DNA from: an uncultured Halobacteriales archaeon
GTDB lineage: Archaea > Thermoplasmatota > E2 > JACPAO01 > JAHFTW01
Reading direction: 5' to 3'
Length of the DNA: 64,000 nt
NCBI GenBank assembly: GCA_964643795.1
Contig: CAZXUC010000010.1
Span: 13,748 to 77,747, forward strand
Positions 1 to 62,493 of this stretch are shown one piece after another (the first letter of the stretch is position 1; each line of letters begins with the position of its first letter). The notes under the pieces are model-generated. The model saw only the letters and a list, made by a program, of their open reading frames with translations, ran no database searches and had not been told where the DNA came from. The position numbers were made by a program, and so were the translations under genes.

Positions 1-174
1 TGGGATTGCACAGATTCACACAGATTTTGGGCCTCAGGGGGTTCGCCCCTTCACGCGGAGGTCGCGGAGCCCCGCGGAATCGTTTCCGCGATTTCCGCGT
101 TCTCCGCGTGAAGTGTAGTGCGTTGCGCGCAGGAACACAATCTGTGGAGGTGTGTGAAATCCCAGGCCTCCCAC
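1..174. repeat. Family A inverted-repeat element (MITE/REP-like), left end cut by the window edge; contains a nested family D palindrome (49-113)
   Basis: TGGGATTGCACAGATTCACACAGATT...AATCTGTG...GTGAAATCCCAGGCCTCCCAC; ends and interior match the copy at 13023-13203. Confidence 0.85.
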
Positions 175-207
175 CGCCCAGCGCCATTGTAGCCGTCCGG
201 GCTTGCC

Positions 208-1008
208 TCACACGACCGTCAACGTACCGGTCATGCCTGCGTGGTATTCGCATTCGAACGTGTACTCGCCCGCCTTCTCTGGCGTGAAATCGACGGTGTA
301 CACGCCGCCCCATTGCGACTTGCCCGCCGTCCTTACGTCAAGGTCGGATACCGCCCAGTTGTGCTGGTCGTTCTCGACGCCGTAGTGGGGATCGTAGTCA
401 AACAAAGTGATGCGCGCCGGCTCGCCCGCCTTGATGGTCAGTTCGGCGGGGTAAAACTCGTGTTCGACGCGCGTCTGCTCGGGCGCCGAGATGTTGACGA
501 TGAGGCCCGGCGTATAGCCTTCCGGGAAGGTTGACGCGACTAGGCCGATTTTCCACGAGCCCTGCGCCACGACGCGGCCGACCCATTCGCCGGCGGCTGG
601 CTGCTCGACGCGCTGCACGACCTTGCGCCACGTCGTGATGGCTCCTGAGTCGTAGACGAGCTGGCCTGCCGGGTCTTCGATCTTGAACGTGACGTCGCCT
701 TCTGGTTTGCCTTGGTCGGCCGGGTCGCCGAAGTCGATTGCCAGCTGCATCCAGCCGGTGTTTTCCGGGACGACGAACCGCATGGCGTTCGTCTCCTTCT
801 CCGTCAATTCGTCGATGAGTTCCGTCGCCGGATTCGAGCCGGCCGCAGTCGGGACGAGCGTTTGTCGCGCGGAGTTCGGCAGGGACGTGCTGAGCGGGGC
901 GGTCGGCACGACGAAGTCATCGTCGGTGGAATCTGACGCTGGCCCCGCGCAACCGGCGGCCAAGAGTGACAAGGCTACAACGACGGGGAAACGCATGAAG
1001 CGATTCAT
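208..1008 (-). CDS. Lipoprotein with C-terminal cupredoxin-like domain
   Basis: Lipobox LAAGC; C-terminus YTFECEYHAGMTGTLTV (C-x2-H-x2-M copper-site pattern); ATG overlaps the upstream stop (TGATG). Confidence 0.8.
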   Translation of the reverse strand: MNRFMRFPVVVALSLLAAGCAGPASDSTDDDFVVPTAPLSTSLPNSARQTLVPTAAGSNPATELIDELTEKETNAMRFVVPENTGWMQLAIDFGDPADQGKPEGDVTFKIEDPAGQLVYDSGAITTWRKVVQRVEQPAAGEWVGRVVAQGSWKIGLVASTFPEGYTPGLIVNISAPEQTRVEHEFYPAELTIKAGEPARITLFDYDPHYGVENDQHNWAVSDLDVRTAGKSQWGGVYTVDFTPEKAGEYTFECEYHAGMTGTLTVV

Positions 1009-2057
1009 CACGCCGCATCCTTGTGCACGGTGGCGACGATTGTGTAGTCGACGAAGATGATGCCATCCTCCATCGGCTCCTCGATGAAGGGGGCGAACTC
1101 CCATTGGCTCTGCTTAGCGTAGGGGCCATCGCCGGCGTCGCCCACCGCGACGGTGTAGGTGTGCTGCGCCGCGGTATCGGGCGCTGCGGGTGGCGCCGTG
1201 TAGTCTCGCGAGTCGGCTCCGTGCAGTTTGAGGCCGAGTCGGAAGGGCGGGCCGTTGGTTTGGGTTAGGATGACGACGACGTGGTCCGCGTCGTACGGGA
1301 CGACCACACCATCATCGGGGACGTGTATACTCGGGCAGCCGCGGTAGCACCGCAAGTTCTCGGATGTCGGGTCGCCATCGTACAGCAGCGAGCCTTCGGC
1401 CTCGAAGAGCTGGAACTCTGTTCGGCCCTGCCAGACGTCAGGATGTCCGGCGAACAAGGTGATGTTGCGCGTGTGGTCGGCTACGACGGTGAAGTGGACC
1501 GTGCCCGTGAACTGCAGCCAGCGCCCGTAAATCGGGCTTGGAGTCCCCGTGAGGTACAGGTCGAACTGCCACGCCGATAAGACCTGGTGCGGTAGGTCCG
1601 CCATCGAGTCATTGACGGGCATCGCCACCGTAGTCGGAGATTCGGTCAGGTTGGCACGCAGGATGAGTGCATTGTCGGCGGCCGATTTGACCCACAGCTG
1701 CGGCGACTCGTAACGGTTGGGTGGCAGCGAGCTGCTGTCCGCCGTCCAAGATACTGTGACGTTCACCCATCCAGTTCCTTGGGGCACGACGTTGCCCGCC
1801 TCGGGGCGCAGTGTTGCCACCGACAACGCATCAGGCGAGAACCACGTCCTACCCGCGTCGACGTCGGCATCCGCGATGGTGAGGGTTTTTTGCCGGTTCC
1901 AATAATCGTGCAGGTGGAGCCCCTGGTCTGTAGAAGTGCGGTTGAGTGTGGGATCCGTGATGACGGTGTACCCTTGCTCGGTCTCGTCCGCACCGTCGCC
2001 GCTGGCGCAGCCGGAAAGGGTGAGGGCCAGCAGCAAGAGTCCGACCAAGAAGCGCAT
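1008..2057 (-). CDS. Secreted lipoprotein of unknown function (paralog of 9128-10321)
   Basis: MRFLVGLLLLALTLSGC lipobox; shared motifs HDYW, GTGWVN, DLPH, HPDVWQG, DGPYAKQSQW. Confidence 0.8.
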   Translation of the reverse strand: MRFLVGLLLLALTLSGCASGDGADETEQGYTVITDPTLNRTSTDQGLHLHDYWNRQKTLTIADADVDAGRTWFSPDALSVATLRPEAGNVVPQGTGWVNVTVSWTADSSSLPPNRYESPQLWVKSAADNALILRANLTESPTTVAMPVNDSMADLPHQVLSAWQFDLYLTGTPSPIYGRWLQFTGTVHFTVVADHTRNITLFAGHPDVWQGRTEFQLFEAEGSLLYDGDPTSENLRCYRGCPSIHVPDDGVVVPYDADHVVVILTQTNGPPFRLGLKLHGADSRDYTAPPAAPDTAAQHTYTVAVGDAGDGPYAKQSQWEFAPFIEEPMEDGIIFVDYTIVATVHKDAA

Positions 2058-2162
2058 GGGTCGGTCGAGAATGAGCTGCCATAAACCCATTGTGGCGCAC
2101 TCCTCTGGACGCCGACAAGCCACCACCATGGTTTTTAGGGGGGCCCAATCGTGGGAGCCTCC

Positions 2163-2813
2163 ATGGCCGTCGATGGTGGAGATGGAGTGGCTGCCGGAAC
2201 CCCGGGCGAATCGGCCCCCGTGCAGGGAGAAACCGGCGCCCCCGTCGTCACACCGCGCCGCAAGTTCCCCAAGTTCGAGAAGCTCTTCGACCCCATCCGC
2301 CGCTTCATGGCAGGTGACGAATCCGACGCCGTCCGTCCGGCGGGCACCGTGAACCGCGTCCGCCACCGCCAGCCCCGCGTCTTCTTCATCTGCACCGGGA
2401 ACGCGACACGCAGCCAAATGGCGGAGGCTTGGGCGCTCAAGGAGGACCTGTACGCGGAATCCGGGGGCACCTTTCCAGCCGCAGTCATCCCGACGGAGTG
2501 CATCGAAGTCATGCAAGAGAAGGGCATCGACATCTCGCAATGCCGCCCGAAACTCCTCGACCCGAGCCGCCTCGGCTCCTTCGACCGCGTCGTCGTCATG
2601 GGCGCCCAACTCCCCGACGCCTGGCGCGAAGGGGTCCGCAGTGAGGAATGGGAAGCGTTGGACCCCAGGGACTTCCCCCTCGACGGGTACCGGCTCGTCC
2701 GCGACGACCTGGAAAAGCGCGTAGCCCGCCTCGCGAAGGTCCTCAAGGGCAGCGCCGCCGCCAAAGCCGCGAAGGCAGCGAAGGCCGCCAACCAGCCCCC
2801 CATCGCTCGCTGA
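2163..2813 (+). CDS. LMW-PTP / arsenate reductase-like protein with N-terminal extension
   Basis: P-loop CTGNATRSQMAE, ESGGT, DP motif; start uncertain. Confidence 0.75.
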   Translation: MAVDGGDGVAAGTPGESAPVQGETGAPVVTPRRKFPKFEKLFDPIRRFMAGDESDAVRPAGTVNRVRHRQPRVFFICTGNATRSQMAEAWALKEDLYAESGGTFPAAVIPTECIEVMQEKGIDISQCRPKLLDPSRLGSFDRVVVMGAQLPDAWREGVRSEEWEALDPRDFPLDGYRLVRDDLEKRVARLAKVLKGSAAAKAAKAAKAANQPPIAR

Positions 2814-2900
2814 GCCTTCGCACGAGACTCGCTCGCCCATCCATTCAGGCTATAGTGGTCAGACTCAAGTAGCGCATTCCGCAACCGACAGTGGTGACCC

Positions 2901-3593
2901 GTGACTCGATTTGACCTGCGCGCCGAAGCCGCTGAAGCCATCGGGGCATTCCTCATCGTCCTCCTCGGCTGCGGCGCCATCTTGTCAGGCAGCCTTGACG
3001 GGCTCGCCATCAGCTTCGCCTTCGGCGCGACTGTCTGCCTTCTCGTCTACGCCTTCGGTCACGTTTCGGGCGCTCACTTCAATCCGGCCGTCACGCTCGC
3101 CTTCGCTGCCATAGGCCGTTTCCCGTGGACCCGCGTCGCGAACTACATCGCCGCCCAAACTATTGGAGCGATTGCGGCAGCCCTTGTCCTAGCAGTCATC
3201 TTCTCCGAGGTGACAGATGCGACGACCGTCCCGTCGCTGGCCTTGCCGCAAGCCATTCTCGTCGAGGTGGCAATCACGTTCACCCTCATGCTCACGATTG
3301 TAGCCTTCGCCACCGACAAGCGCGTCGCCCCAGGCTTCGCCGGCCTCGCCATCGGAGCTGCCATCTTCGTGGGAGCCCTAGTTGCTGACCCACTCACCGG
3401 AGGTTCGATGAATCCGGCACGCAGCCTCGGCCCCGCCCTGGCGTCCAGCGTCTGGGATTCCATCTGGCTCTACCTCATCGCACCGCCCATCGGCGCACTC
3501 CTCGGCGCCTTCGCCTATGAATCCGTGCGCGGCGGCCTCAAGCCGAAGCCTAACGAAGCGCAGACAGTGGCGCACTACGAGGCCACGGCATGA
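2901..3593 (+). CDS. MIP-family aquaporin/aquaglyceroporin
   Basis: SGAHFNPAVT and GGSMNPARSLGP (two NPA boxes), six hydrophobic segments. Confidence 0.95.
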   Translation: MTRFDLRAEAAEAIGAFLIVLLGCGAILSGSLDGLAISFAFGATVCLLVYAFGHVSGAHFNPAVTLAFAAIGRFPWTRVANYIAAQTIGAIAAALVLAVIFSEVTDATTVPSLALPQAILVEVAITFTLMLTIVAFATDKRVAPGFAGLAIGAAIFVGALVADPLTGGSMNPARSLGPALASSVWDSIWLYLIAPPIGALLGAFAYESVRGGLKPKPNEAQTVAHYEATA

Positions 3594-4012
3594 GCCAAAC
3601 GCCCCAAGCCGCCGCCAGGCCTCGCGGAGCCACGCCTCGCGTTCTCTTCGTCTGCGTCGGTAATTCGTGCCGCTCACAGATGGCTGAAGGATTCGCCAAA
3701 AAGCTTGGGCTGCACGCAGAATCCGCGGGCACAGTCCCAGCGACGCGCGTGAATCCGACGGCGGTTGCTGTGATGGCAGAGAAGGGCGTCGACCTCGCGG
3801 CGCACACGCCCAAGACCCTGGATTGGGACGCGCTCAAGAACTTTGATCGCGTCGTCACGATGGGATGCGGTGTCGAGGAATCCTGTCCGAGCCTGAAGAC
3901 CGACGAAGATTGGGGCCTCGACGATCCCGTTGGCCAACCGGTCGAAGAGTTCCGGCGCATTCGCGACGACATCGAACGCCGCGTCGCTGAGCTCGCAGCG
4001 CGCCTCGACTGA
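3590..4012 (+). CDS. arsC: Arsenate reductase, LMW-PTP (thioredoxin-coupled) family
   Basis: CVGNSCRSQMAEG, TMGCGVEESCP, WGLDDP; ATGA overlap with the MIP gene. Confidence 0.9.
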   Translation: MSQTPQAAARPRGATPRVLFVCVGNSCRSQMAEGFAKKLGLHAESAGTVPATRVNPTAVAVMAEKGVDLAAHTPKTLDWDALKNFDRVVTMGCGVEESCPSLKTDEDWGLDDPVGQPVEEFRRIRDDIERRVAELAARLD

Positions 4013-4014
4013 CC

Positions 4015-4088
4015 CTTCACGCGGAACGCGCGGAAGGCGCGGAACTGACTCCGTCAGGCGTTTCCGTGGGTTCCGCGTCCTCCGCGTG
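4015..4088. repeat. Family D 9-nt-period palindrome
   Basis: CTTCACGCGGAACGCGCGGAAGGCGCGGAA...TTCCGTGGGTTCCGCGTCCTCCGCGTG. Confidence 0.85.
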
Positions 4089-4144
4089 TAGGCGGCGCGC
4101 GTCGACGCCGACCACGAAGCAGGAAATGCGCGGAGCTGACTTCG

Positions 4145-5039: not shown

Positions 5040-5089
5040 AGCGCTGTCGAGGGCATGCCCGTTTAAGGGTGCTTGCCGGCCCGCCCCCG

Positions 5090-5207
5090 GTCGCAGAAAA
5101 CACGTGCAGCACACGCCCAGTCGCAGAACTCGCAGAAATCGCCGAACCAACGGCTTCTGCGGGTTCTGCGTATTCTGTGACTCGGTCAGTTTGCTGCATT
5201 CTGCGAC
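5090..5207. repeat. Family E 9-nt-period palindrome (doubly nested)
   Basis: GTCGCAGAA...GTCGCAGAACTCGCAGAA...TTCTGCGGGTTCTGCGTATTCTGTGAC...TTCTGCGAC. Confidence 0.8.
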
Positions 5208-11141: not shown

Positions 11142-11226
11142 CCAGCGCCCGCTGCGGTGCTGCCTCGGCCGGGCGCACCACGTTTCCGCAGATTTCGCCG
11201 ATTGCGCAGAACGACGCCCGACTACC

Positions 11227-11316
11227 TACCGAGGATTCCGGGAATTACGGGGAACGGACTGTGCCCCTGTGTCCCCGAAATCTCCGTAATCCCCGGTCGG
11301 TTGATCGCTGAATTCG
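11227..11316 (+). repeat. Family C palindromic repeat (inverted copy at 26758-26847)
   Basis: TACCGAGGATTCCGGGAATTACGGGGAAC-loop-GTGTCCCCGAAATCTCCGTAATCCCCGGTCGGTTG. Confidence 0.9.
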
Positions 11317-13022: not shown

Positions 13023-13203
13023 GTGGGAGGCCTGGGATTGCACGGATTCACACAGATTTTGGTCCTCATTGGGTTCGCCACTTCACGCGAAGGTCGCGGA
13101 ACCCCGCAGAATCGCTTCCGCGCCTTCCGCGTTCTCCGCGTGAAGTGTAGTGCCTTGCGCGCAAAAACACAATCTGTGAATCTCTGTGCAATCCCAAGCC
13201 TCC
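13023..13203. repeat. Family A inverted-repeat element with nested family D palindrome (13081-13145)
   Basis: GTGGGAGGCCTGGGATTGCACGGATTCACACAGATT...AATCTGTGAATCTCTGTGCAATCCCAAGCCTCC. Confidence 0.9.
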
Positions 13204-13283
13204 AGTTCTGCTGTGACGCAACACCATTGCTTCAAGCCCCCGAAGCGAAAAACCAAATGACCACCCGGCCGCATGTCTGCCTC

Positions 13284-15136: not shown

Positions 15137-15289
15137 GCTCGCAGCTAGCTGGCATATCTCATAGGTTTTGCGGTGACAGTGTGGCAGTGTTTGCCGGTTT
15201 CCGGGCCGAAAAAAGAGCGGCAATCGCAGCCAAGCGAGGTTTGCCCTTTTCCGCAGATTTCGCAACTGTCCCCAATCACCTTGGCCCTG

Positions 15290-15403
15290 GTGTGGGAGGC
15301 CTGGGATTGCACGGATTGTCACAGAACGTGGTCTGCGCGTGCCTTGCCTCCACTGCGCGAAAAATCATCTTTGCATTTCTGTGAAATCCCAGGCCTCCCA
15401 CAC
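15290..15403. repeat. Family A inverted-repeat element (short interior)
   Basis: GTGTGGGAGGCCTGGGATTGCAC...GTGAAATCCCAGGCCTCCCACAC. Confidence 0.9.
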
Positions 15404-17020: not shown

Positions 17021-17247
17021 AACCGCGGATTACGCGGTGTGCGGTGGAACCTTGTTCCGCACCGACCGCCGAACCGCGGATTTCGCGGATTGCGCGGAGT
17101 GCGGTAGAACTGCGTTCCGCGCACCGACTAAACCGCGGATTACGCGGATTACGCGGAGTGCGGTAGAACTGCGTTCCGCGCAATCCGCGAAATCCGCGGT
17201 TACGTCGTCGGAAGCGCGGTACAACTGCGTTCCGCGCAATCCGCGGT
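17021..17247. repeat. Family H array: about 3.5 tandem 50-60 bp modules built from 9-nt units, with an inverted end
   Basis: AACCGCGGATT starts at 17021, 17072 and 17131; GCGGTAGAACTGCGTTCCGCGCA recurs; inverted arm AATCCGCGAAATCCGCGGTT. Confidence 0.9.
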
Positions 17248-17271
17248 CAAGTGGGCCACGAGAGGCCGCTC

Positions 17272-20399: not shown

Positions 20400-20401
20400 G
20401 C

Positions 20402-20497
20402 GACGTTCCCGACTACGTTTACGATGACGTTCACGAGGACGTTCCCGACCACGTTCACGACGACGTTTACGACGACGCGTGCAACGACGTTCACGAC
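20402..20497. repeat. 12-bp tandem repeat, 8 units
   Basis: Consensus GACGTTCACGAC; fills the gap between convergent genes. Confidence 0.85.
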
Positions 20498-22030: not shown

Positions 22031-23079
22031 TCAGTCGTCGAGTTGGGTGCGGTTTGCGTTGGTCTTGCCTTGCACGTTCTCACCGCTCAATTCCGCTTCC
22101 AGTTCCTCCACTGTCGGGAGGATTCCGGTGAGGTTCTTTGGGAGCTTCTCGACCAGCGTCGTCTCCCAACCGGCGACACCGATGGGGCGCCTCAAGTGAC
22201 GCAACGCGTACTCGACGACGACCTTGTTCTTCTCGCGGCACAAAAGGAGGCCGATGGTCGGTTTGTCGTCCGGATGCCGCAACAGATCGTCCGCCGCAGA
22301 GAGGTACAGGTTCAACTGGCCCACGAACGCCGGGTCGAATGGCGCCGCTTTCAACTCGACGACGACGTACGCGCGCAGCTTCAGGTGGTAGAACAACAGG
22401 TCAACGAAGAAGTCCTGGTCGCCCACTTCAAGCCGCACCTGGCGCCCCACGAAGGCGAAGGCACGACCAAGTTCCAGAAGGAACCGTTGGACATGCTCGA
22501 CAAGAGCCTGCTCGACCTCGCGCTCCCGGCGCGGGTCGGCCGTTCCAAGAAAATCGAAAAGGTACGGGTCCTTGAACGCCTGCGCGGCCAGGTCCGAATC
22601 CGTGGGCGGCAGCGTGGCGTTGAAGTTCGTGATTGCCTTGCCATGGCGTTGGTGGGCACGTCGTTCAATCTGGAGCGCAAGGATGTTGCGCGACCAGCCA
22701 TGCTCGCGGGCCTGCCGGGCGTACCAGAGCCGTTCCGCTGCATTGTTCAGTTTCTCGATAAGGGCGATGTGGTGATACCATGGGATTTGTGCAAGCGTCT
22801 CTTGCACAATTGCCTCGTTGGGCCAAGCGGCCGCGAAGGCGCGCATGTACTTCAGGTTCCACGTCGAGAAGCCACGCATGTCGGGGAATCCATCGCGGAG
22901 GTCGGTGGAGAGACGGTCGATGACCTTAGCACCCCAGCCAGAACGACGCGCAGTCGGTCCCGCTGGATGCGCTCCCTAATAGTGCTCAAGGTCTCGGCGT
23001 AGTCGGCTGGAAGTTGGGCCCGCGCCGGGGGCGTCGGGAACGCGGAGGCAGGGCCAGGCCCGGCGGCGGTTTTGCTCAT
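22031..23079 (-). pseudogene. DUF1016 / YhcG-like PD-(D/E)xK nuclease, frameshifted by an internal deletion
   Basis: Frame 1 DYAETLSTIRERIQ..RVVLA; frame 2 GWGAKVIDRLS..MRGFS, KDPYLFDFL, DLLFYH, VVELK; junction at about 22938. Confidence 0.85.
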
Positions 23080-26323: not shown

Positions 26324-26433
26324 TTCCGCAGATGTAACTTCACCGCCCTTTTCCGCAGATGCCACAGATTTCGCAGAATTGACGGGCCGGCGGGATGCCG
26401 CGCTATCTGCGGCATCGGCGAAATCTGCGGAAA
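26324..26433. repeat. Family F 9-nt-period palindrome
   Basis: TTCCGCAGATGCCACAGATTTCGCAGAA...ATCTGCGGCATCGGCGAAATCTGCGGAAA. Confidence 0.85.
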
Positions 26434-26700
26434 CGCGGCCTTGGCCTTTCGAGGTCACCAGCAATGCACGGCTGTGCCGGCCCAACGAGTTTCGGCGCAC
26501 CTCATGTGCTGAATCGCGAGGTCCCCAATGCGGAGTAGAAATCTGTTGGTCCAGGGGCGCACAACTGTGCTGGCAATCTATGACGGGACCCGCCAAACGC
26601 CGGCGACGTCGACGGGCACGCGAGGGAACCTCGCCTGAAAGAAACGGGCGGCGCCGTGCGCCGCTCTTCGAAAGTTACTGAAGCGGCGGCTCGGGGACGA

Positions 26701-26847
26701 CGCCGTCGGCGGACTGCGGTAAGCCATGTGACCGGGGGATTCGAACGGGTAATCTTGCGAATCAAGCGACCAACCGACCGGGGATTACGGAGATTTCGGG
26801 GACACTAGGTTACACCCAGTTCCCCGTAATTCCCGGAATCCTCGGTA
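26701..26847 (-). repeat. Composite C+B element (inverted copy of 11227-11375)
   Basis: Reverse complement reproduces the C arms and then the B motif with similar spacing. Confidence 0.9.
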
Positions 26848-26890
26848 AGCGTCGGGCACCGTCGTTGCGCATTGGCGGCGTATCGTGAGA

Positions 26891-26944
26891 TTGCGCGGGA
26901 ACAGCGGACCCAATCGGTCCGCGCAATCCGCGTAATCCGCGGTT
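26891..26944. repeat. Family H partial copy
   Basis: TTGCGCGG...TCCGCGCAATCCGCGTAATCCGCGGTT. Confidence 0.75.
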
Positions 26945-31723: not shown

Positions 31724-32228
31724 CGCGCCGGTGGACGGCGCTGGTGGACGCCGCGAACGCGTACACAATTTCTCGCGGCTTGGATGTGTGCGCCACGAGC
31801 TTCAAGAGGTCGTGCCGTGAGACGACGCCGACCGGCTTGTCCTTCTCCAGCACGACGAGGTGCAACACGTCATGACGGAGCATGAGGTCGATGGCGCGTT
31901 CGACCTGGTCGTTTGGTCTCAAGTTCGCCGGCAGGAGACGCATCGCTGCGCTCGCTGGCATGGCCCGGCTCTCCTGGTACAGGGCAGCGAGGTCGTTGCG
32001 CAGGATGGACTTGCCGAAGACGCGCGGTGACCGGTCCGGGTCGAAGGGGTTCCCGGGAAGCCGGGGCGTGAAGTCACGCTCCGTCACGATGCCGGCGGCC
32101 TTGCCGCGCCGGTCCACGACGACCACGCACCCGATCTTTTCGGCGAGCAGGGTACGGGCGACGTTCTCCATGCAAGTATCGAGGTCCACGACGACGACGG
32201 GCCTACTCATGATCTCTTTGACGAGCAT
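31650..32228 (-). CDS. CBS-pair domain protein
   Basis: VKEIMSRPVV, GIVTERD, VGVVSRHDLL. Confidence 0.85.
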   Translation of the reverse strand: MLVKEIMSRPVVVVDLDTCMENVARTLLAEKIGCVVVVDRRGKAAGIVTERDFTPRLPGNPFDPDRSPRVFGKSILRNDLAALYQESRAMPASAAMRLLPANLRPNDQVERAIDLMLRHDVLHLVVLEKDKPVGVVSRHDLLKLVAHTSKPREIVYAFAASTSAVHRRAISLPSPLPAEDLAINRRRLRRRR

Positions 32229-33461: not shown

Positions 33462-33533
33462 GGTGACGGCCAGCAGGGCGATGGGGAAAGCCGTTTCGAG
33501 GGGGAACTGGCGCGGCAAGCTCGAAGCCTCTGT

Positions 33534-34160
33534 CACATGGCTTACCGCAGTTCGCCGGCGGCGTCGTCCACGGGTTTCAGGTTGACACTGCGGCCGTGGT
33601 GTGGGAGGCCTGGGATTGCACGGATTTCCACAGAATCTTGACTTCGATCTGGCATGAGGACCATTTCGTATCCCTGGTGTCTGTGAAATCACCCTGCTCC
33701 CTTTCTTCACGCGGAACGCGCGGAAAACGCGGAAACGTGGTGCCGCGAGTATTCGCGACCTCCGCGTGAAGCGATGCACGGCGCCGCCATCATCGCCAAC
33801 ACGATTGAGCCTCTCGCGGCCGCCTACGCCCTGTCGCAGAACGCGCAGAAACCGCAGAACCCCGGTTCTGTGTGTTCTGCGATTTCTGCGACCGGTCGGG
33901 CAGGTTCTGCGACCGGTCGGTGCGCGAATCCTCCGCGGCCTCCGACGTCGCAAGCGGAAGTCGGGTCCCGTCGCAGACTGATTCGAGCCCGGCGCGCGCT
34001 TGGACTACCGCATTGCTGGTGCGCGTGGAAGGGCACCGCGCCGTTTCCACAGATTTCGCAGATGCCACAGATCCTGAGCCCTCGCTTCGATTCAACTTCT
34101 GCGAAATCTGTGTCATCTGCGGAAAAGGTAGCGCGCGTAATCTGCGGCATCTGTGGAAAA
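33534..34160. repeat. Mosaic of repeat families B (33534), A (33599-33690), D (33705-33771), E (33833-33913) and F (34044-34160)
   Basis: Each module matches copies elsewhere in the window. Confidence 0.88.
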
Positions 34161-39915: not shown

Positions 39916-40063
39916 CTTCACGCGAAACGCGCGGAACCCGCGGAACGACGCCGCGAGCCGCCGACGCCGAGTCGCAGAACGTACAGTAGACGCAGAAACG
40001 GCTTCTGTGGTTTCTGCGCGTTCTGCGACCGGTCGTTCCGCGAACCTCCGCGTCCTCCGCGTG
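39916..40063. repeat. Family D palindrome with family E nested in its loop (39971-40029)
   Basis: CTTCACGCGAAACGCGCGGAACCCGCGGAA [GTCGCAGAA...TTCTGCGAC] TTCCGCGAACCTCCGCGTCCTCCGCGTG. Confidence 0.88.
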
Positions 40064-41055: not shown

Positions 41056-41085
41056 TTTCCGCAGATTTCGCAGATGCCGCAGAAT
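41056..41085. repeat. Family F half-site
   Basis: TTTCCGCAGATTTCGCAGATGCCGCAGAAT. Confidence 0.7.
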
Positions 41086-41477
41086 CTTGTGGACCTCCCG
41101 TGCGCTTGCAATCTGTGATTGGTCCCGACCACGCTAGCAATCCGGCGAGCCAAGGGCGCGCCATGTTCGTATCCATCTGCGACGGGACCCGAATCCCTCC
41201 GACGACGTGGGCGGGCACGTGCAGCAGAAACATGATAGCGAAGAGGGCGGCGGGGCGCGCCGCAGCGGTTACGGCTTGGGGATACGGCTTCGTATGGACG
41301 GACAGGCCGATCGAACCCGTCATGCAAGGCGAATACCGCTTCTGGAGCGAAGCCATCAAACAGACTTGACAGTGGCGCAGCTGCGGCAGTAAAGGGCGAC
41401 CTGGGTTGCATTGCGGGGTGCCCAAGCATCCTGGTCGATTCGCAACGGTCAAGCATCCGTCGCCGCATGGAGGTCAC

Positions 41478-42688: not shown

Positions 42689-42744
42689 GTCGTAGGGCTT
42701 TGCCTGAGGTGTCTGGGTCGTAGGGCTTTGCCTGAGGTGGCTGG
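42689..42744. repeat. 28-bp direct tandem repeat (2 copies) in a divergent intergenic region
   Basis: GTCGTAGGGCTTTGCCTGAGGTG(T/G)CTGG twice. Confidence 0.85.
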
Positions 42745-42864
42745 CCGTGGGGGCCCGATATGCCGACCTCTTGACCCTAGCCCAAGGCACGCGCCCAATC
42801 GCCGCGCCGCAAGAAACGCGCCAACAGCACAACGGCTTTATGCCGCCGGGCGGCATTTTCGCGC

Positions 42865-48990: not shown

Positions 48991-49064
48991 TGGGGAAGAT
49001 GGGAGTTGAACCCACGACCTGGGCATTATGAGTGCCCCGCCCTAACCAGCTAGGCCACTTCCCC
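48991..49064 (-). tRNA. tRNA with CAT anticodon (elongator Met or Ile2; not initiator)
   Basis: GGGGAAG...GGGCA CT CAT AA TGCCC...GTGGG TTCAACT CCCAT CTTCCCC A. Confidence 0.93.
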
Positions 49065-49208: not shown

Positions 49209-49281
49209 TGGAGCGGAGGGGATTCGAACCCCTGGCCTCGTCCATGCCAAGGACGCGATCTTCCAACTGATCTACCGCCCC
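49209..49281 (-). tRNA. tRNA-Ala(GGC)
   Basis: Cloverleaf, anticodon GGC, G3-U70 pair, A73. Confidence 0.96.
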
Positions 49282-49507: not shown

Positions 49508-49993
49508 CTATTTCTCCGCTGTGCTGGCGGCCTTGGCCCATTGCGCTGCACCTTCGCTTTCCTTCTGCGCGGCGCTCACGGCGGCGCGGACGGCGGGCAC
49601 GACTTGCCACTTCGTTCCGTAGTAGATTACGCCCGACTCGCCGTCGGCACCGAGGCGACGGAATACGGCTTGCACGACTGTTCCCTCGCGCAGTGCCGCG
49701 ACGTCAGAGTCCACGATCTGCCCCGTCACGAGCGGCCCTTCTTCAGTCTGCACGAGGGCGACGATGTACGGCACCTGCATCTCATAGCCGGGCGCCGGTT
49801 TGTGGACGCGCGTGAATTCCAGGATGCGACCCCGACCGGAGAGGACTGTTGGCCGCATGCGGCCGATGGAGGCGCGGCGGCACTTGGGGCAAACGACGCG
49901 TGGCGGGAAGTACGTCGATTGGCACACGCCGCACTTGACGCCCTGCAGGTTGTACCGCTGCGGGATTTCGCGCCAAAACCGCGGGACGCTCAC
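49508..49993 (-). CDS. DUF35 Zn-ribbon/OB-fold scaffold protein
   Basis: SVPRFWRE, CGVC..YFPPRVVCPKC, PYIVALV, VFRR..YG. Confidence 0.92.
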   Translation of the reverse strand: MSVPRFWREIPQRYNLQGVKCGVCQSTYFPPRVVCPKCRRASIGRMRPTVLSGRGRILEFTRVHKPAPGYEMQVPYIVALVQTEEGPLVTGQIVDSDVAALREGTVVQAVFRRLGADGESGVIYYGTKWQVVPAVRAAVSAAQKESEGAAQWAKAASTAEK

Positions 49994-50093
49994 GTCGGCA
50001 CCGCCGGGTGCCCGACGGAGCGTTCCGCGGCCGAAGCGGCAGCGAGGAATGCCTGCGGCCGGCGCGTCGCCGGCCGGAGGCTGCGCGGGACGC

Positions 50094-51296
50094 TCATTGT
50101 GGCCCCTCCAGGACGTGGACGACTGCGGTCGCGCCTGTGCCGCCGGTGTTGTGGGTGAGGCCGATGCGTGCGTCCTTGACTTGTCTGCCTTCGGCTTTGC
50201 CGCGCAGTTGCCAGACGACTTCGCAGACTTGCGCGATGCCCGTGGCGCCGGCGGGATGACCTCGCGCCTTGAGGCCGCCGGAGGGATTGATGACGCAAGG
50301 CCCTCCGAACGTGGTGCGCCCCTCTTCCGTCGCCTTCCCGCCATCGCCCTTGTTGACGAAGCCTAGGTCCTCGATCGCAAGAATCTCCCCGATCGTGTAG
50401 CCGTCACTGACTTCGGCGAGTTGCAAGTCGGCCGTGCTGATGCCGGCTTCCTGGTAGGCGCGCTTGGCCGCATGCTCCGTGGAACGCCAAGCGGTCAAGC
50501 TAGAGCGCGAGTGCAGGGCCAGGGTGTCGGAGGCTTGACCGGACCCGGCGACGCGGACGGCGTCCTTGCGATAATTCGCCACGACCTTGTCGCTTGCCAA
50601 GACGACGCAGGCCGCACCATCGCACAGCGGGGCGCAATCGAAGACGGTCAGCGGATCCGCGACCATGGGCGCCCGCAAGACCTTCTCGATGTCGATGGAG
50701 TTGCGGAACTGGGCCAGGGGGTTCTTGGCGCCGTGCGCGTGGTTCTTCACTGCGACCTGCGCGAGTTGGGCGCGCGTCGTGCCGTAGCGGGCCATGTGGC
50801 GCTTAGCAACCAGCGCATAGAGCGCAGCGTCGGTCGCGCCAAAGAAATGCTCCCATTCCTGGTCGATGCCGGAAGCCGAAATGGCCTGTCCATCCGCATC
50901 CGACACGTCCGTCATCTTCTCGACGCCGCCTACCACGACGATGTCGGCGGAACCGGACCGGATGAGATGCACTGCTTGACGGAATGCCAACCCTCCGGAT
51001 GCGCCAGCGGCCTCGACGCGAGTGGCAGGCAGGTGGCGGTCGGCGAGCCCGGCACCGTCCAGCAAGAGCGGGGCGGTGTGCTCTTGGCCGAGGAGTTTCC
51101 CGGTGCTCATCGTGCCGACGAAGACAGCGTCGATCTCGTCGCCCTGGATTCCAGCGTCCTGAATCGCGGCCAACCCGGCGTCGGTCATGAGGTCGCGGAA
51201 GGATTTCTCCCACATCTCTCCGAAGCGCGTGTGGGCGGCGCCGATGACGAAAGCCTCCGGCCGCTGGAGTTTTTTCGGAACAGGTTTGCGGCTCAT
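50094..51296 (-). CDS. Thiolase (acetoacetyl-CoA thiolase of the HMGS/DUF35 cluster)
   Basis: VGGVEKM, VKNH, DGAACVV, NPSGGLKARGHPAGATG, HNTGG; the usual EAAC reads EAAG here. Confidence 0.9.
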   Translation of the reverse strand: MSRKPVPKKLQRPEAFVIGAAHTRFGEMWEKSFRDLMTDAGLAAIQDAGIQGDEIDAVFVGTMSTGKLLGQEHTAPLLLDGAGLADRHLPATRVEAAGASGGLAFRQAVHLIRSGSADIVVVGGVEKMTDVSDADGQAISASGIDQEWEHFFGATDAALYALVAKRHMARYGTTRAQLAQVAVKNHAHGAKNPLAQFRNSIDIEKVLRAPMVADPLTVFDCAPLCDGAACVVLASDKVVANYRKDAVRVAGSGQASDTLALHSRSSLTAWRSTEHAAKRAYQEAGISTADLQLAEVSDGYTIGEILAIEDLGFVNKGDGGKATEEGRTTFGGPCVINPSGGLKARGHPAGATGIAQVCEVVWQLRGKAEGRQVKDARIGLTHNTGGTGATAVVHVLEGPQ

Positions 51297-51313
51297 GGGC
51301 TCGCGCCCTCCAA

Positions 51314-51382
51314 AACCACGAATTGCACGAATTTCACGAACGCCACAGGGTGCGTTTCGTGCAATTCGTGAAATTCGTGGTT
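51314..51382. repeat. Family G palindrome inside the HMGS-thiolase operon
   Basis: AACCACGAATTGCACGAATTTCACGAA...TTCGTGCAATTCGTGAAATTCGTGGTT. Confidence 0.88.
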
Positions 51383-51396
51383 CGGCGGCACGGCGC

Positions 51397-52458
51397 TCAT
51401 TCTTCGCCCCCCGCCATCACGAGTTTGCCGCGGTACTTGGCGTACGTCGCATAGTCGACTTCGGACGTGTCGGCAAGTTGAGTCTCCAACCGTTCCTTGT
51501 CGCTGCGGTCGTAGGATTCGATGTTCTTCGTGACCGTGATGTCGAACGCGTCGGCGCCCGCCCCGGAGCCGTAGCCGCACATGAAGATGCGATCGCCTGG
51601 CTTGGCTGAATCGAGGATGTTGCACAGGCCCAGCAGTACGGCGCCAGAGTACGTATTTCCGATGCGTGGGGCAAGCAGGCCAAGCGCATACTGTTCCTCC
51701 GTGAACCCCAATTTCTGTGCCGCAGCGGCGGGGAACTTGCCATTCGGTTGATGGAAGACGGCGTACGTGTAGTCTTTCGGTTTGCTGCGCGCCACCTCGA
51801 ACAAGCGCTCGGAAGCCATGCGGACGTGACGGAAGTACGCCGGCTCGCCGGTGAACCTCTCCCCATGGCTAGGATACTTCTGGCCTTCGCGGCGCCAGAA
51901 ATCCGGCGTGTCCGTCGTGAATGACACGGTCTCGTTGAGCTCGGCCAGGACGTGGCGCTTGTCGGCGCCGATGAGCAGGGCCGCGCCGCCCGCTGACGCA
52001 GAGTATTCGAGGGGGTTGCGCGGCGCCCCCTGGCTGGTGTCCGAGCCGATTGCCAAGACTGACTTGCACATTCCCGACTTCACGAGGCCCATGCCTGACT
52101 GGATGGCGGCCGTGCCGGCCTTGCACGCGAACTCGTAGTCCGCCATCGTCAGGTACGGACCCGCGCCGAGGGCAGCCTGCACGATTGTGCCCGTTGGTTT
52201 GACCGCGTAGGGATGCGATTCGGAACCGACGTAGATGGCTCCGATGTCTCCGACCGGCGTGGGTGCCCGTCGCATCGCCTGCCGGGCTGCCATGACGGAA
52301 ATCGTTGCGACGTCCTCGTCGGGGCCGGGCACGGATTTTTGGTGGACGTGGAGCGCCTTGCCGACGTTCGCGTCGTCGCCCCAGACGCGGGCGATTTCAG
52401 AGGCCTTGATTCTGTAGCGCGGGACGTACGCGCCGTAACTGGTGATGCCGACTGGCAT
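51397..52458 (-). CDS. hmgS: Hydroxymethylglutaryl-CoA synthase (archaeal)
   Basis: [39 protein letters not shown]. Confidence 0.96.
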
Positions 52459-52624
52459 GGAGAACGATTTTCCACCCAGGAGGGCCATTAAAAGCGTGGC
52501 GAAGCCATTGTCGGCGATTGCCGAATGGATTCTGGTTGCGGCGGCTAATTGGCGGTTGGGCCGGCCTACGGACAGCGCCGAGCGCGCCGGTGGGAGGGGC
52601 GAGCCTCGGTCACCGCAATCCAGT

Positions 52625-56954: not shown

Positions 56955-57012
56955 GCCGCGGAATCAAGGAATCCAAGGAACCGGATTCCCAAGATTCCGT
57001 GGATTCTGCGGC
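56955..57012. repeat. Family J short-period palindrome
   Basis: GCCGCGGAATCAAGGAATCCAAGGAA...TTCCCAAGATTCCGTGGATTCTGCGGC. Confidence 0.7.
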
Positions 57013-57680: not shown

Positions 57681-57753
57681 GGGGTGATAACTCAGCTGGG
57701 AGAGTGCCAGACTGAAGATCTGGATGTCGCCGGTTCGATCCCGGCTCACCCCA
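57681..57753 (+). tRNA. tRNA-Phe(GAA)
   Basis: GGGGTGA...CCAGA CT GAA GA TCTGG...GCCGG TTCGATC CCGGC TCACCCC A. Confidence 0.96.
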
Positions 57754-58780: not shown

Positions 58781-58942
58781 GGGGCATAAGGCAGGCCCTA
58801 GGTGCTTGGCCTTACGTGCCTGGACCGCACTGCTCGACGACTAGGACGACGATGTCAAAGGCATCAAGATCACTTGTACCGGCATCGTGGTGCAGCACTT
58901 GGAAGGCCATTGCGAGCGCACTCCAATCGCTCCGCTCTGAGC

Positions 58943-60655
58943 CTATTGGTCATCAAATGCGACCGCGACTTGCATGGAGACCACATCCTCGAAGACCTGC
59001 GCCGATTGGATTAGGACCTCGAGACGCGCCGCCCCTGCAGTCGTCCACAATATGTCGTGCACCATCCAACCGCCGATGCCGTCGGGCATGGCCTGGCGGA
59101 CCTCGCCAGCCTCGGCTGCGGGGACGAAGACTGTCATCGTGATGCACGACCCAGTGGTCCTCCCGCATGTGTTGTTCGCGAGCGGCGGGCCGCCGTCGTG
59201 AGGCTTGATCGTGAACGAAGCCATGGAACTCGTGCCGACGCGTGGCGTTGGATGGAGCACGAGGATGACGTCATGATCCGTGCCGGTCGCCAGTATTACG
59301 GCGGACCCCGCCACGGGGTCCGCCGTCGGCGGCGCGACCGCAGTGAGCAAGCCTGCGACCAACAGGACGACGAGGCCAAGAGTGACCTCGACCCTGACGA
59401 TGCGACGGAAGGTGGGCACGTTGCCGCGCTCAGCCAAGCTGCCCCAACCGGCACGCCCTACGAAACGCTGCAGGAACCCCGCCAAACCAGAGGTGCGAGG
59501 CGCGTCGAGGAAGACGAAGCGGTTCACGGCGGCGGCGGCGACCATGACGGCAAGGAGCACGAGCTTCAAGGCCAGGAAGCGGCCCCACGGTCCAGCGAGG
59601 AGGACCGTCGGATTGAGGAGATTGTGTGCGCCGACCAAGATGAGCGCCGTCGTGAACCCGGTCGCCGCTAGGATGATGACGCAGCCGAGTGCCAGCGACC
59701 CGAACCGCCGGCCGACCCTCAGCGCTTCCACGGGGTCCGGCGCGGCGCGCGACAGCCACAGCAGGAGCACCGCGAGGCCGCCGACCCACGTCGCGGCTGC
59801 AAGCAGGTGCAGGGCATCGACGGCGATGGCGCCGACGCCGTGGGCGAACGAATGGCTAAGCATCGCCGCGGGGATGGCCGCGGCGGCGACCAAGATCCCT
59901 GCGAGCGGGGCGGCAAGTCGGCTTGGATTATTCGGGGACATTGCTAGCAAAGCCAGCACCAGGGCAGCTGCGCCGAGGATGAAGCGCCATGCGAACAGCC
60001 CTCCTGTCGAGGTTGCAAGGTACAGCGCGGGTGAAGCGAAGCCGCCCTCTTGGGCAGTATGCAGAAGGAGGGCCGCGACGCCTGAGGCATGCAGGAACGT
60101 GCCCATGGCAAGCATGGGAAGGGCAGGGGCCGCCGGGGTCGGGCGCAGCCAGGTCAAGAAGACGCACGCCCCCAACGTGAACGCGATGCCGGCGAACACG
60201 GCGAAGCGGGCAAGCGCCGCGAACAAGTCCACCGGCTCTGGGGCCGAAGCAGCCGGCGGGTCGTAGGGGCCGATGGCGAAGCCGAAGGTCTGCGTCCGGA
60301 GATGCGTGTCGCCCGAGAGGACGGTGTGCGTGACGAGGTAGGCGCCATCAGAAAGGTTCGCGATGAGGGCAACGCGCAGGACCGGATTCGCTGCACTGCC
60401 CATGACGGTCGTGCGGCCGACATCCACACGTAACCCGTCGGAACGCGTGACTTCGATGTGGGCGCTTGAGGGTTCAATCGGCTCGGAGAGTGTTACGAGG
60501 ATCTCCGTAGGTGCTACTTCGAGGCGGGCACCGGCGGCGGGCTCCGAGGTGAGACGGTCGGCGTGGCCCGCAATGGAGGGCAGCACCATGATGACCGCCA
60601 CAAGAAGGGATGCAACCAGCGCCAACCGAGGCAGCCGGAACACGAGCCGCGTCAA
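58943..60655 (-). CDS. CopC-CopD fusion copper-handling protein (YcnJ-like)
   Basis: Signal peptide then H(ADRLTSEP), SGDTH, SH..H, HLLAAATWVGGL, WGRFLALK. Confidence 0.9.
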   Translation of the reverse strand: MTRLVFRLPRLALVASLLVAVIMVLPSIAGHADRLTSEPAAGARLEVAPTEILVTLSEPIEPSSAHIEVTRSDGLRVDVGRTTVMGSAANPVLRVALIANLSDGAYLVTHTVLSGDTHLRTQTFGFAIGPYDPPAASAPEPVDLFAALARFAVFAGIAFTLGACVFLTWLRPTPAAPALPMLAMGTFLHASGVAALLLHTAQEGGFASPALYLATSTGGLFAWRFILGAAALVLALLAMSPNNPSRLAAPLAGILVAAAAIPAAMLSHSFAHGVGAIAVDALHLLAAATWVGGLAVLLLWLSRAAPDPVEALRVGRRFGSLALGCVIILAATGFTTALILVGAHNLLNPTVLLAGPWGRFLALKLVLLAVMVAAAAVNRFVFLDAPRTSGLAGFLQRFVGRAGWGSLAERGNVPTFRRIVRVEVTLGLVVLLVAGLLTAVAPPTADPVAGSAVILATGTDHDVILVLHPTPRVGTSSMASFTIKPHDGGPPLANNTCGRTTGSCITMTVFVPAAEAGEVRQAMPDGIGGWMVHDILWTTAGAARLEVLIQSAQVFEDVVSMQVAVAFDDQ

Positions 60656-60658
60656 GGG

Positions 60659-61405
60659 TCAGCGCCGCCGCAGTGCGAGGGCGACTAGGGCCAGGGCCAA
60701 TGCGACGGCACCAAGGGAGACACCTGGGGCGCCCGGGTCGTCACCTTGCGGGGTCGGTGAGGCCGAGGTTCCAGGCGCATGGCTACCGACCAACCGGTAA
60801 GAAGGCCGGGCTAATTCAGTGGGGGAGGCCATTTCGGCGCTCCCGACGGGGCCGCGTCCATCCTCGGTGGAGTACGTCCCAGGCATCACGTCTCCCGCGG
60901 TGGTGCCGTGGAACGCCTGGACCTGGAATTCCGAAATCACGTCGCCCGGAATTGCGCCTAGAGTTGATAGTCTGACCGTTCCCTCTACGGCGAAGCGGGC
61001 GCCGTCGCCAATCGGCCCTGTCGCGTTGACACGGTCGAACGTCCCGGTGAAGTGCAAGTTGTCGGTGGTGCGCAATTCAAACGACCGCACGCCTTGTCCG
61101 GTCCTGAATGTGAGTACGTCCACGAAGCCGTCGGCGGGCGCGCCGCCATTGAGGAGGAACCTGAACACCACGACCTGCGCTGCAAATGCCTCGTCCCACG
61201 CCTCACGCAAATCCATGGCGACCAGGTCGTGCGTCCCATTGCACTCCGCGGCGGCCGTGCCATCATCGCCGCTGCAATCGTCGTTCTGGTCAACGAGGAT
61301 CCGCACCTCGCCAGCGCGCGTCGCTGGTGGGCCATGCCCGGCGGCCAGCGGCAGCAACCACAGCCCCAACACGGCGATGGCGAGTTGGGCGTTGCGGCGC
61401 GGCAT
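60659..61405 (-). CDS. Secreted protein with PGF-CTERM-like anchor
   Basis: Signal peptide followed by His; HDLVAMDLRE; APGVSLGAVALALALVALALRRR. Confidence 0.78.
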   Translation of the reverse strand: MPRRNAQLAIAVLGLWLLPLAAGHGPPATRAGEVRILVDQNDDCSGDDGTAAAECNGTHDLVAMDLREAWDEAFAAQVVVFRFLLNGGAPADGFVDVLTFRTGQGVRSFELRTTDNLHFTGTFDRVNATGPIGDGARFAVEGTVRLSTLGAIPGDVISEFQVQAFHGTTAGDVMPGTYSTEDGRGPVGSAEMASPTELARPSYRLVGSHAPGTSASPTPQGDDPGAPGVSLGAVALALALVALALRRR

Positions 61406-61564
61406 GGCGAACTCGGGCCGCGCACGCCTCGCGCGCGTCAAAGCGGCGGCCCTCCCGCCGAGCCGGAGTCTTTTGTCACGGCTTGAACTGACCTGTTGCG
61501 TCCCATAAGCCTTGTCTTCGTGCGACGAGCGAGCACTCTTTGCTTGGCAATCATCTGTCCCGGC

Positions 61565-61870
61565 GTGGCTCATCCCAACTTGGCAACCGCCTCAGCCCTC
61601 ATCGCGGTCGTCGCATGCGTCAGCCTGATTCTGTTAGTCCTGGCCGCGGCGGCCTGGAGGCGCACCGGCAACAGCAAGCTGGGGTTCGTCACGGCTGCCT
61701 TTGCCTGCTTCTTCGTGAAGAGCGCAGTCACCGCCTACGCGATTGCGACCGAGGGCATCCACCATGAGGACCTGGAACTCCTCGGTACGGCGTTCGACTT
61801 GGCGATCGTCCTCCTGCTTGTCGCCCCCTTCATCCCCGTCACGCGCCGACTCGCACAGCGCCAACCATGA
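61565..61870 (+). CDS. Small three-TM membrane protein
   Basis: AWRRTGNSKLGFVTAAF...KS; ATGA overlap with the regulator gene. Confidence 0.78.
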   Translation: MAHPNLATASALIAVVACVSLILLVLAAAAWRRTGNSKLGFVTAAFACFFVKSAVTAYAIATEGIHHEDLELLGTAFDLAIVLLLVAPFIPVTRRLAQRQP

Positions 61871-62406
61871 CCGACCCCGTGCTTGGTCTCAAGATGCGCC
61901 GCCGCATCGTCGCGGTCGTCCAGGAATACCCCGGCCTGCATCTGCGCGAGGTGGCTCGACAGCTCGACACCTCCGTGGCGCTCGTGGAGTACCACGCCGC
62001 GATCCTGCTGCGCGCAGGCGTCTTGTCCGAACAAAGCGACGAGCGCTACAAACGCCTGTACCCTGCCCGACAATCTTCGTCGCGGGAGCAGAGCACGCCG
62101 TCGGCGCGGGACCGACCGCTCCTCGCCCTCTTGCGCGAACGTTGGCCGCTCGGCATCACGCTGCACTTGCTGGACAAGGGGCCCCAACCGCACAAGCAGA
62201 TGTGCGAAGACCTCGGCCTAGGCAAATCCAAACTCTCGTTCCACTTGCGCAAGCTCGAAGCGGCCGGCATCGTCGCCAAGTCCCATGATGGGCGCTTCAG
62301 GGTCCTTGACGAGGGCGTCGTCCATCGCATTCTCGTAGCGTACCCGCCGACGCGGGACTTGCGTGACGAGTTCGCAAACGTGTGGCTGACGCTCTACGGC
62401 GACTAG
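61867..62406 (+). CDS. Double winged-helix transcriptional regulator
   Basis: PGLHLREVARQL..VEYH; LGKSKLSFHLRKL. Confidence 0.88.
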   Translation: MTDPVLGLKMRRRIVAVVQEYPGLHLREVARQLDTSVALVEYHAAILLRAGVLSEQSDERYKRLYPARQSSSREQSTPSARDRPLLALLRERWPLGITLHLLDKGPQPHKQMCEDLGLGKSKLSFHLRKLEAAGIVAKSHDGRFRVLDEGVVHRILVAYPPTRDLRDEFANVWLTLYGD

Positions 62407-62434
62407 GGTTGGACGCCAAAGTCGCCGGACCGAT

Positions 62435-62493
62435 CCACTGAACCCACAGAACGCACTGAACGGCGGCTTCTGTGCCTTCAGTGCGTTCAGTGG
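62435..62493. repeat. Family I 9-nt-period palindrome between convergent genes
   Basis: CCACTGAACCCACAGAACGCACTGAA...TTCTGTGCCTTCAGTGCGTTCAGTGG. Confidence 0.82.

Follow-up and report, generated by a model that had tools for sequence, protein, structure and literature searches.

Dispersed palindromic repeats with a nine-nucleotide period in a Thermoplasmatota archaeon and the GxxExxY nuclease genes that they bracket

Several kinds of small dispersed repeats built from inverted or tandem units have been described. Miniature inverted-repeat transposable elements (MITEs) of the Correia/NEMIS type are small and non-coding, have inverted ends, lie between genes with which they are co-transcribed, and occur as filled and empty sites between strains. 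Cyanobacterial short tandemly repeated repetitive (STRR) heptamers and small dispersed repeats are very short tandem intergenic units that form several families and insert into the hairpins of others, and we know of no cognate gene described for them. Eukaryotic foldback transposons have inverted terminal repeats of short tandem units and an often non-coding interior; they are much longer and use an unrelated transposase. In bacterial REPIN-RAYT systems, repetitive extragenic palindromes (REPs) of 20-40 nucleotides (nt) go with a Y1 HUH transposase, the REP-associated tyrosine transposase (RAYT). RAYTs are described as single-copy entities, each distinctive within its genome (PMC3116915), and REP palindromes as having a conserved GTAG or CGTC tetranucleotide at one end (PMC3733652). 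Here we analyse a 64,000-nt stretch of archaeal DNA (the window; positions 13748-77747 of contig C10 of draft genome G000) that carries palindromic repeats with an internal period of 9 nt, together with the GxxExxY nuclease genes that the same repeats bracket elsewhere in the genome.

We class this system as one that would work like REPIN-RAYT but is not a member of it, as it fails on the defining enzyme and on the end tag. Both comprise short, imperfect palindromes that are present in many copies outside genes, mostly on the 3' side, and that fall into several families within one genome and form mosaics of different families. Each nuclease gene in either system is present once and lies between repeats of one family, a different one for each paralogue (six genes for six families in G000); gene and repeats are vertically co-inherited, and gene-less copies are numerous 3' of genes. 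The enzyme here, however, is a PD-(D/E)XK hydrolase (PF13366), the arms are arrays of 8-10-nt units in place of one palindrome, the host is an archaeon, and neither tetranucleotide is present in the family end consensuses (aac-C.., atc-C.., aca-C.. and ngt-C..). All features listed above for Correia/NEMIS MITEs are common to both systems, but the modules here have no target-site duplication that we could find and no DDE parent that we saw, and their ends are internally periodic. Short tandem intergenic units, several unit families per genome and small repeats inserted in hairpins are shared with the STRR heptamers and small dispersed repeats. Inverted arms made of short tandem units with an often non-coding interior are shared with foldback transposons, which differ in their length, eukaryotic hosts and transposase.

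G000 is a 2.78-Mb, 62-contig draft metagenome-assembled genome (MAG) of about 64% G+C that is 88% complete; G-numbers denote the genomes of our phylum sample (n = 301) and C-numbers contigs. Pfam matches to TBP, RFC, exosome Rrp4, TruD and an archaeal CCA-adding enzyme identify the host as an archaeon, and the closest public relatives of the window's HMG-CoA synthase are Thermoplasmata/Thermoplasmatota MAGs. Genes were called with a simple codon-usage caller, which gave 2275 genes and 85% coding sequence.

Modules consist of two to four tandem 9-nt units, a loop, and the same units inverted, each unit being a 7-nt core fitting C-R-C-N-G-A-W plus two variable bases. A sequence-only reading of the window had proposed a palindromic grammar of 9-nt units, and this grammar is present at every locus that it listed. 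Periodicity was measured genome-wide as runs of 18-nt windows in which 15 or more positions match the sequence at a given shift. G000 holds 312 period-9 runs in comparison to 4 in block-shuffled sequence; periods of 5, 7, 8, 10, 11, 13 and 14 gave 6-15 runs, and the coding-related periods of 6, 12 and 15 gave 58-76. Once period-3 runs were removed 302 arms were left, 247 of them with a C-R-C-N-G-A core, and the arm counts by core were CGCGGAA 58, CGCAGAA 53, CGCGGAT 28, CGCAGAT 24, CACCGAT 18, CACGAAT 14, CACAGAA 7 and CACTGAA 4. A strict search (three cores, a loop of at most 150 nt, three inverted cores) returned 162 modules in G000, and the pattern of three consecutive CRCNGAW-NN units matched 265 times (reversed control, 0). 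Across the genome we estimate about 160-200 modules in at least eight families, to which the repeats of the window belong.

Within the window there are 16 intergenic clusters with about 22 modules, the module tally being made by eye (Table 1); 14 clusters are the non-genic ones of the pattern listing and two are missed by the pattern (15249..15400 and 56955..57012). Seven further 16-nt two-unit matches look chance-like, six within called genes and one intergenic (31942-31957). All loci of the sequence-only reading bear repeats, although several are nested or composite: modules lie inside the loops of other modules at 39916-40062, 13023-13205 and 1-174, and the largest mosaic, of about 620 bp (33520-34140), has 20-50 partial copies in G000 at 77-96% identity. 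The sub-families that it separated do have distinct units but are not independent inventions, since the outer ends AACC...GGTT and ATCC...GGAT are shared; ACA-CGCGGA... and GT-CGCAGA... are further ends common to families.

Arm-to-arm agreement at core positions was seen in 77-100% of modules for the two outer units and 52-100% for the inner unit, and at spacer positions 8 and 17 in just 22% and 14%, at or below chance. Because complementarity between the arms is confined to the cores and does not extend to the spacers, one strand folds into 7-8-bp helices with a mismatch every 9 nt. Six window modules folded as single-stranded DNA (ssDNA) gave -19.7 to -29.2 kcal/mol (z -5.3 to -8.1), with 1x1 or 2x2 mismatches between the 7-8-bp helices every 9 nt, and in two of them a register slipped by one unit was favoured.

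A search for arms with a distant partner identified three homologous genes of about 150 amino acids (aa), each between inverted arms of a different family. The bracketed gene scored 135.1 bits against NCBIfam TIGR04256 'GxxExxY protein' (cut-off 35) and 127.3 bits against Pfam PF13366 PDDEXK_3 (cut-off 22). By tblastn, G000 has six GxxExxY loci (on C13, C21, C23, C33 and C49), all outside the window, and all six are bracketed, each by a different arm family. They encode PD-(D/E)XK proteins of 125-150 aa, and the arms partly overlap the gene; at C13:21103 the reading frame starts within the first unit of the left arm, and the right arm encodes the C-terminal residues. The sequence-only reading had inferred a factor encoded outside the window and had put GxxExxY among the families worth looking for next to the repeats; these six bracketed genes now provide the candidate. 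A limited literature search (GxxExxY, PDDEXK_3, archaeal REP and Thermoplasmata repeats; TIGR04256 curator notes not covered) gave no description of this gene-arm pairing, and the table of one PD-(D/E)XK survey lists PDDEXK_3 as 'Unknown' (PMC3424549).

The protein of the bracketed gene has both the G-x-x-E-x-x-Y motif and the D...E-x-K signature of PD-(D/E)XK enzymes, and E21, Y24, D61, E71, K73, Y89, N102, F103 and R112 are invariant in 28 aligned proteins. Judged by these residues, the enzyme looks active. An AlphaFold model (predicted local distance difference test, pLDDT, 96.8) gave a predicted restriction-endonuclease-like fold, with Cas4 SSO0001, a restriction-endonuclease-like protein, Hjc, lambda exonuclease and AddAB nuclease domains as the best Foldseek matches; no sequence match to solved structures was found. 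The fold and D...E-x-K are common to archaeal Hjc/Cas4/RecB-type nucleases, albeit through weak structural matches (E 2e-4 to 1e-2, TM 0.4-0.66). The substrates of Hjc are four-way junctions, which an extruded palindrome would also present, and we know of no junction-cutting activity in the GxxExxY family. The family comprises at least 17,648 clusters at 50% identity (E <= 1e-10), and many of its best-scoring relatives in a library of 1.8 billion proteins are tandem two-domain proteins of 250-295 aa, which hints at a dimeric working unit.

Our survey of the phylum showed that gene and arms go together well beyond G000. Among the 49 Thermoplasmatota GxxExxY loci with enough flank, 40 had an inverted repeat in their flanks with a score above 12; 150 control genes of matched size from G000 had a median of 9 and a 95th percentile of 12. 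These flanking repeats are tandem C-R-C-N-G-A units with a period of 9 in the genus of G000 and of 8, 9 or 10 elsewhere; the fixed 9-nt period of the sequence-only reading holds in this genus but not in other lineages. In the protein tree, orthologues sharing an arm core cluster together and paralogues of one genome differ: CACGAA groups G000, G009, G010 and G001, CACCGA groups G000 and G009 with G005 close by, CGCAGA pairs G012 with G009 and G006 with G000, and CGCGGA pairs G002 with G000.

The gene is present in 25 of the 301 phylum genomes. All 12 genomes with at least 13 matches to the 9- or 8-period pattern are GxxExxY-positive, a co-occurrence count that overstates independent events, as these genomes represent about five phylum families that count as independent; gene-free genomes (n = 276) reach at most 5 matches. 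A degenerate 9-period pattern was found in 16 of the 301 genomes, with 1-78 matches in the other genus genomes sampled and reversed controls near zero. The distant, lower-G+C genomes G060 and G124 had 22 and 13 matches with the same grammar and AACC...GGTT ends. The period-8 pattern, used as a prediction test, was found in G124, G179, G086, G081, G148, G128 and G097, all gene-positive, with one match in G000 and none in the 276 gene-free genomes. Its reversed control had 3-16 matches in G046, G113, G081 and G108, which all carry the gene, and this suggests further unit families beyond the patterns used.

Outside the phylum sample, a metagenome scan with one protein as query, reaching one subfamily, returned 80 loci at 48-61% identity. 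For 49 of the 67 with enough flank the best flanking repeat holds at least two cores, mostly of C-R-CAGAT type and with a period of 9 or 10, and six further loci have units in reverse orientation (by eye). Against a cross-locus control with a 95th percentile of 21, 23 of the 67 loci pass, this control being inflated as the loci share arms. In PLSDB, GxxExxY homologues are present on seven plasmids. The closed 1.1-Mb plasmid 1 of Gemmatirosa kalamazoonensis KBS708 has a CGCGGAT 3+3 module directly after its homologue and 11 arm matches in about five dispersed modules (control 0), and on pTS1 of Treponema saccharophilum the gene is bracketed by a single inverted CACGGAT unit.

The repeats behave like REPINs or MITEs, that is, as small non-coding imperfect palindromes that have been multiplied and turned over within a Thermoplasmata genus. 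The HMG-CoA synthase/thiolase junction (window 51297-51396) is empty in six species of the genus, where the two genes abut or overlap, and filled in six others, with CACGAA modules in G000, G010 and G001, CGCGAA in G009, CACTGA with a long loop in G011, and in G002 CGGGGA units within remnants of outer CACGAA-like units. On a two-protein tree G012, with an empty site, groups with the filled G000 and G009, so that several insertions or a clean loss are required. The neighbouring thiolase/DUF35 junction is empty in G000 and five others, counting G011, which has about 30 extra bases and no module, and is occupied by different families in G010, G001, G009 and G002. At the filled junctions a stretch from Shine-Dalgarno to start is seen by eye on both sides of the module, which survival bias could explain. 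HMG-CoA synthase, thiolase and DUF35 genes form an operon (window 49508-52488, minus strand), with stop/start overlaps of ATGA or TGATG in module-free species.

Copies are similarly variable between genomes. Of 12 further genomes of the genus, 7 have the CGCGGAA triple, as does none of 28 genomes from outside the genus, and the dominant unit differs species by species. Within-family pairwise identity in G000 has medians of 0.61-0.81 and maxima of 0.97-1.0; since identity between the flanking genes of sister species is about 75-80%, some copies arose after the species had split. The copies are therefore neither few nor fixed at orthologous sites, the outcome that the sequence-only reading had set against its own proposal: many lie outside the window, and filled and empty sites were seen at both operon junctions.

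We favour, with moderate confidence, a reading in which each GxxExxY nuclease recognises the periodic cores in the arms around its gene and is responsible for the spread of the modules and for their turnover, a REPIN/RAYT-like system with a different class of enzyme. Each family would have one master locus outside the window, where its arms bracket a GxxExxY gene. The nuclease, probably as a dimer, would recognise the repeated cores of these arms and cut there, and host repair or replication functions would finish the copying. Gene-less modules would be internal-deletion derivatives moved in trans, and new copies would persist where they land 3' of genes, at operon junctions or within loops of pre-existing modules, such loops being favoured targets. 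The REP-like archaeal system of the sequence-only reading agrees with this in its archaeal host, its many polymorphic copies and its bracketed candidate gene; mobilisation by that factor, like binding, cleavage and any host benefit, is what we infer.

A number of results weigh against this proposal. For CGCGGAA and CGCAGAA, the largest two families, no bracketed gene of their own was found in the 88%-complete G000, and we assume that they are served by the CGCGGAT- and CGCAGAT-bracketed genes, which have the same 6-nt core. Nine of the 49 phylum loci lack a flanking repeat, and G007 has the gene but a single pattern match. The agreement of clades and cores reflects co-inheritance and not many independent events, as kin share labels, and the repeat-rich genomes are fewer in lineages than in number, as given above. 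A transposon-like signature is missing: genome-wide, the best flanking direct-repeat score for long target-site duplications was 6.25 in comparison to 5.89 in shuffled pairs, and no duplication of 2-5 nt was found at any of eight offsets. PD-(D/E)XK nucleases hydrolyse DNA and are, to our knowledge, not known to join strands, so a further activity would be needed. Finally, as modules nest in loops, the gene could be a passenger that settles there.

This last point can be developed into an alternative in which another factor or host process spreads the modules and GxxExxY genes are selfish, homing-endonuclease-like genes lodged in existing loops. There are homing endonucleases of the PD-(D/E)XK type, transposition of DNA needs more than a hydrolytic nuclease, and loops are indeed favoured landing sites, as seen from the modules within modules and the nested units at the G002 junction. 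We nevertheless consider such an origin unlikely: there is one gene per family per genome and not many invaded modules, orthologues keep their arm core across species and same-genome paralogues have different ones, the arms overlap the ends of the reading frame, and every repeat-rich genome has the gene. No other transposase-like repeat longer than 1 kb was seen in the assembly, and no Y1 transposase was found.

The missing target-site duplications bear equally on a classical MITE origin, with modules as deletion derivatives of a DDE or serine transposon missing from the draft and the GxxExxY association secondary. The terminal inverted repeats fit such an origin, as do the many G000 contig ends that stop in repeats, and MAGs often lose multi-copy insertion sequences. 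In self-comparison of the 88%-complete draft, however, no dispersed repeat was seen above about 620 bp, none that is transposase-like above 1 kb and none above 1.2 kb, DDE families not being searched one by one by profile. Moreover, the same arms bracket GxxExxY genes in at least five families of the phylum, in metagenomes and on a closed bacterial plasmid, and we regard a lost classical transposon as very improbable.

The placement of modules in G000 is strongly biased. Among 125 simple modules, 69 lie between same-strand genes, 38 between convergent and 2 between divergent genes, 7 in called genes and 9 at contig edges, so 109 of 116 classifiable modules are intergenic; spacer lengths alone would predict about 66 same-strand, 20 convergent and 23 divergent. 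Modules between same-strand genes lie at a median of 44 nt past the upstream stop codon and 91 nt ahead of the next start. This can be interpreted as selection for a host function, where modules act mainly in cis as hairpins that stabilise or end transcripts at their 3' ends, or as landing pads for chromatin or repair proteins, and the nuclease just maintains or processes them. The 3'-end bias, the position of modules inside operons and the stability of their hairpins agree with it. Alternatively, purifying selection against promoter insertions can give the same bias. Sister species have filled and empty sites even in an essential operon, and a search of 28 genomes from sister genera and families revealed none of the modules. 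A unit-agnostic scan of 80 other Thermoplasmatota loci (1.24 Mb) likewise gave no modules and just 12 coding-like runs. There is no RNA-stability strand bias relative to transcription (stabler strand sense in 32 versus 41), and orientation is biased in only one of five families tested, CGCAGA (16 versus 4), whose copies are not independent as many lie in the mosaic of about 620 bp. A primarily host-serving role is in our view improbable.

Other candidates for a mobilising factor were considered and rejected. The sequence-only reading had named RAYT/HUH enzymes, but PF01797, the TnpA Y1 transposase family of IS200/IS605 elements, had no match in G000, G002 or G005 (TnpB was not searched). It had also named DUF1016, and the DUF1016 gene of the window (22031-22879) has no 9-nt arms within about 4 kb. 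This gene, a DUF1016/YhcG PD-(D/E)XK gene on the minus strand, is without the first 60 or so positions of the DUF1016_N model. Y1 transposase genes do occur on G060:C36 and G124:C285, on AT-rich contigs with unrelated G+C-rich hairpin brackets and a composition unlike that of the module contigs.

We extend the favoured reading more tentatively, at somewhat less than even confidence, to GxxExxY/PDDEXK_3 proteins across Archaea and Bacteria. These may be nucleases dedicated to dispersed palindromic repeats of periodic structure, a class not recognised before, in which each paralogue would read a 6-7-nt core repeated every 8-10 nt in two inverted arrays and protein and code would co-diversify. 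The result would be a second, independently evolved counterpart of REPIN-RAYT with a hydrolytic nuclease, probably acting on hairpin or cruciform DNA. If true, this would provide a very large family of orphan nucleases with both a function and a DNA target, and the concept of a domesticated nuclease that has its own repeat population, known from HUH enzymes in bacteria, would come to include archaea and another enzyme superfamily. The many protein-core pairs found in nature can serve directly as data for deciphering a short, modular code of DNA recognition, and as a cultured bacterium with gene and modules, G. kalamazoonensis KBS708 makes the idea testable at the bench. The modules reshape operon junctions and break assemblies in this uncultured permafrost and groundwater lineage.

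Table 1. Repeat clusters and tRNA genes of the window, and GxxExxY loci elsewhere in G000 (contig:position).
Feature	Location	Details
Composite, cut by window start	1..174	GGGATTGCAC-R-GATT/CACAGA outer arms (1-30, about 136-170) around CGCGGA-type 3+3 module (about 51-110)
CGCGGA-family module, 3+3 units	4017..4089	3' of phosphatase gene; ssDNA fold -27.7 kcal/mol, z -5.25
CGCAGA-family module (5119-5181) with single extra units either side	5090..5228	fold z -7.1
CACGAA-family module, AACC...GGTT ends	7719..7787	fold z -7.95
CGCAGAT-type arm, then CGGGGAT-family module	11184..11297	same pairing found again elsewhere in genome
Nested: CGCGGA module (about 13083-13141) within GGGATTGCAC-R-GATT arms	13023..13205	
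Partial CGCAGAT arm, then long-loop GGGATTGCAC-R-GATT family module	15249..15400	
CGCGGAT-family arm array, three forward and two reverse	17021..17250	59-nt higher-order period
Cluster	26324..26943	CGCAGAT module 26350-26429; about 330 nt repeated spacer; CGGGGAT module 26779-26845; CGCGGAT reverse arm 26915-26943
Mosaic of about 620 bp, four modules of four families	33520..34160	GGGATTGCAC-R-GATT, CGCGGA, CGCAGA, CGCAGAT/CACAGAT; begins just upstream of phosphofructokinase gene
Nested: CGCAGA module in loop of CGCGGA module	39916..40062	
CGCAGAT left arm and conserved interior of longer (about 250-300 nt) gene-less form	41056..41210	sister copies on C38, C6, C2
CACGAA-family module	51314..51382	HMG-CoA synthase/thiolase operon junction; fold -28.3 kcal/mol, z -8.1
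Degenerate module, GGAAT-type 9-nt units	56955..57012	3' of methylmalonyl-CoA mutase gene
CACTGA/CACAGA module	62432..62495	between convergent genes; fold z -5.85
GxxExxY locus	C13:1556	arms CGCAGAT
GxxExxY locus	C13:21103	arms CACCGAT
GxxExxY locus	C21:47422	arms GGGATTGCAC-R-GATT/CACAGA
GxxExxY locus	C23:23049	arms CGCGGAT, two per side
GxxExxY locus	C33:10096	arms CACGAAT
GxxExxY locus	C49:805	arms CGGGGAT; gene frameshifted
tRNA gene (Rfam)	48991-49064	minus strand
tRNA gene (Rfam)	49209-49281	minus strand
tRNA gene (Rfam)	57681-57753	plus strand

Some further repeat features were observed. A run of about 28 C residues lies immediately upstream of a CGCGGA module at about position 74830 of contig C7 of G000. 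In G190, where no GxxExxY gene was found, positions 3496-3556 of contig C457 hold CACAGAAT-N units in a long tandem array that runs in one direction and lacks an inverted partner. At the gathering score, an Rfam scan of the window matched the three tRNAs of Table 1 and nothing else. Tandem Repeats Finder reported a 12-nt-period array of eight copies (20401-20497) and a 28-nt tandem duplication (42689-42752) in the window, both unrelated to the 9-nt grammar.

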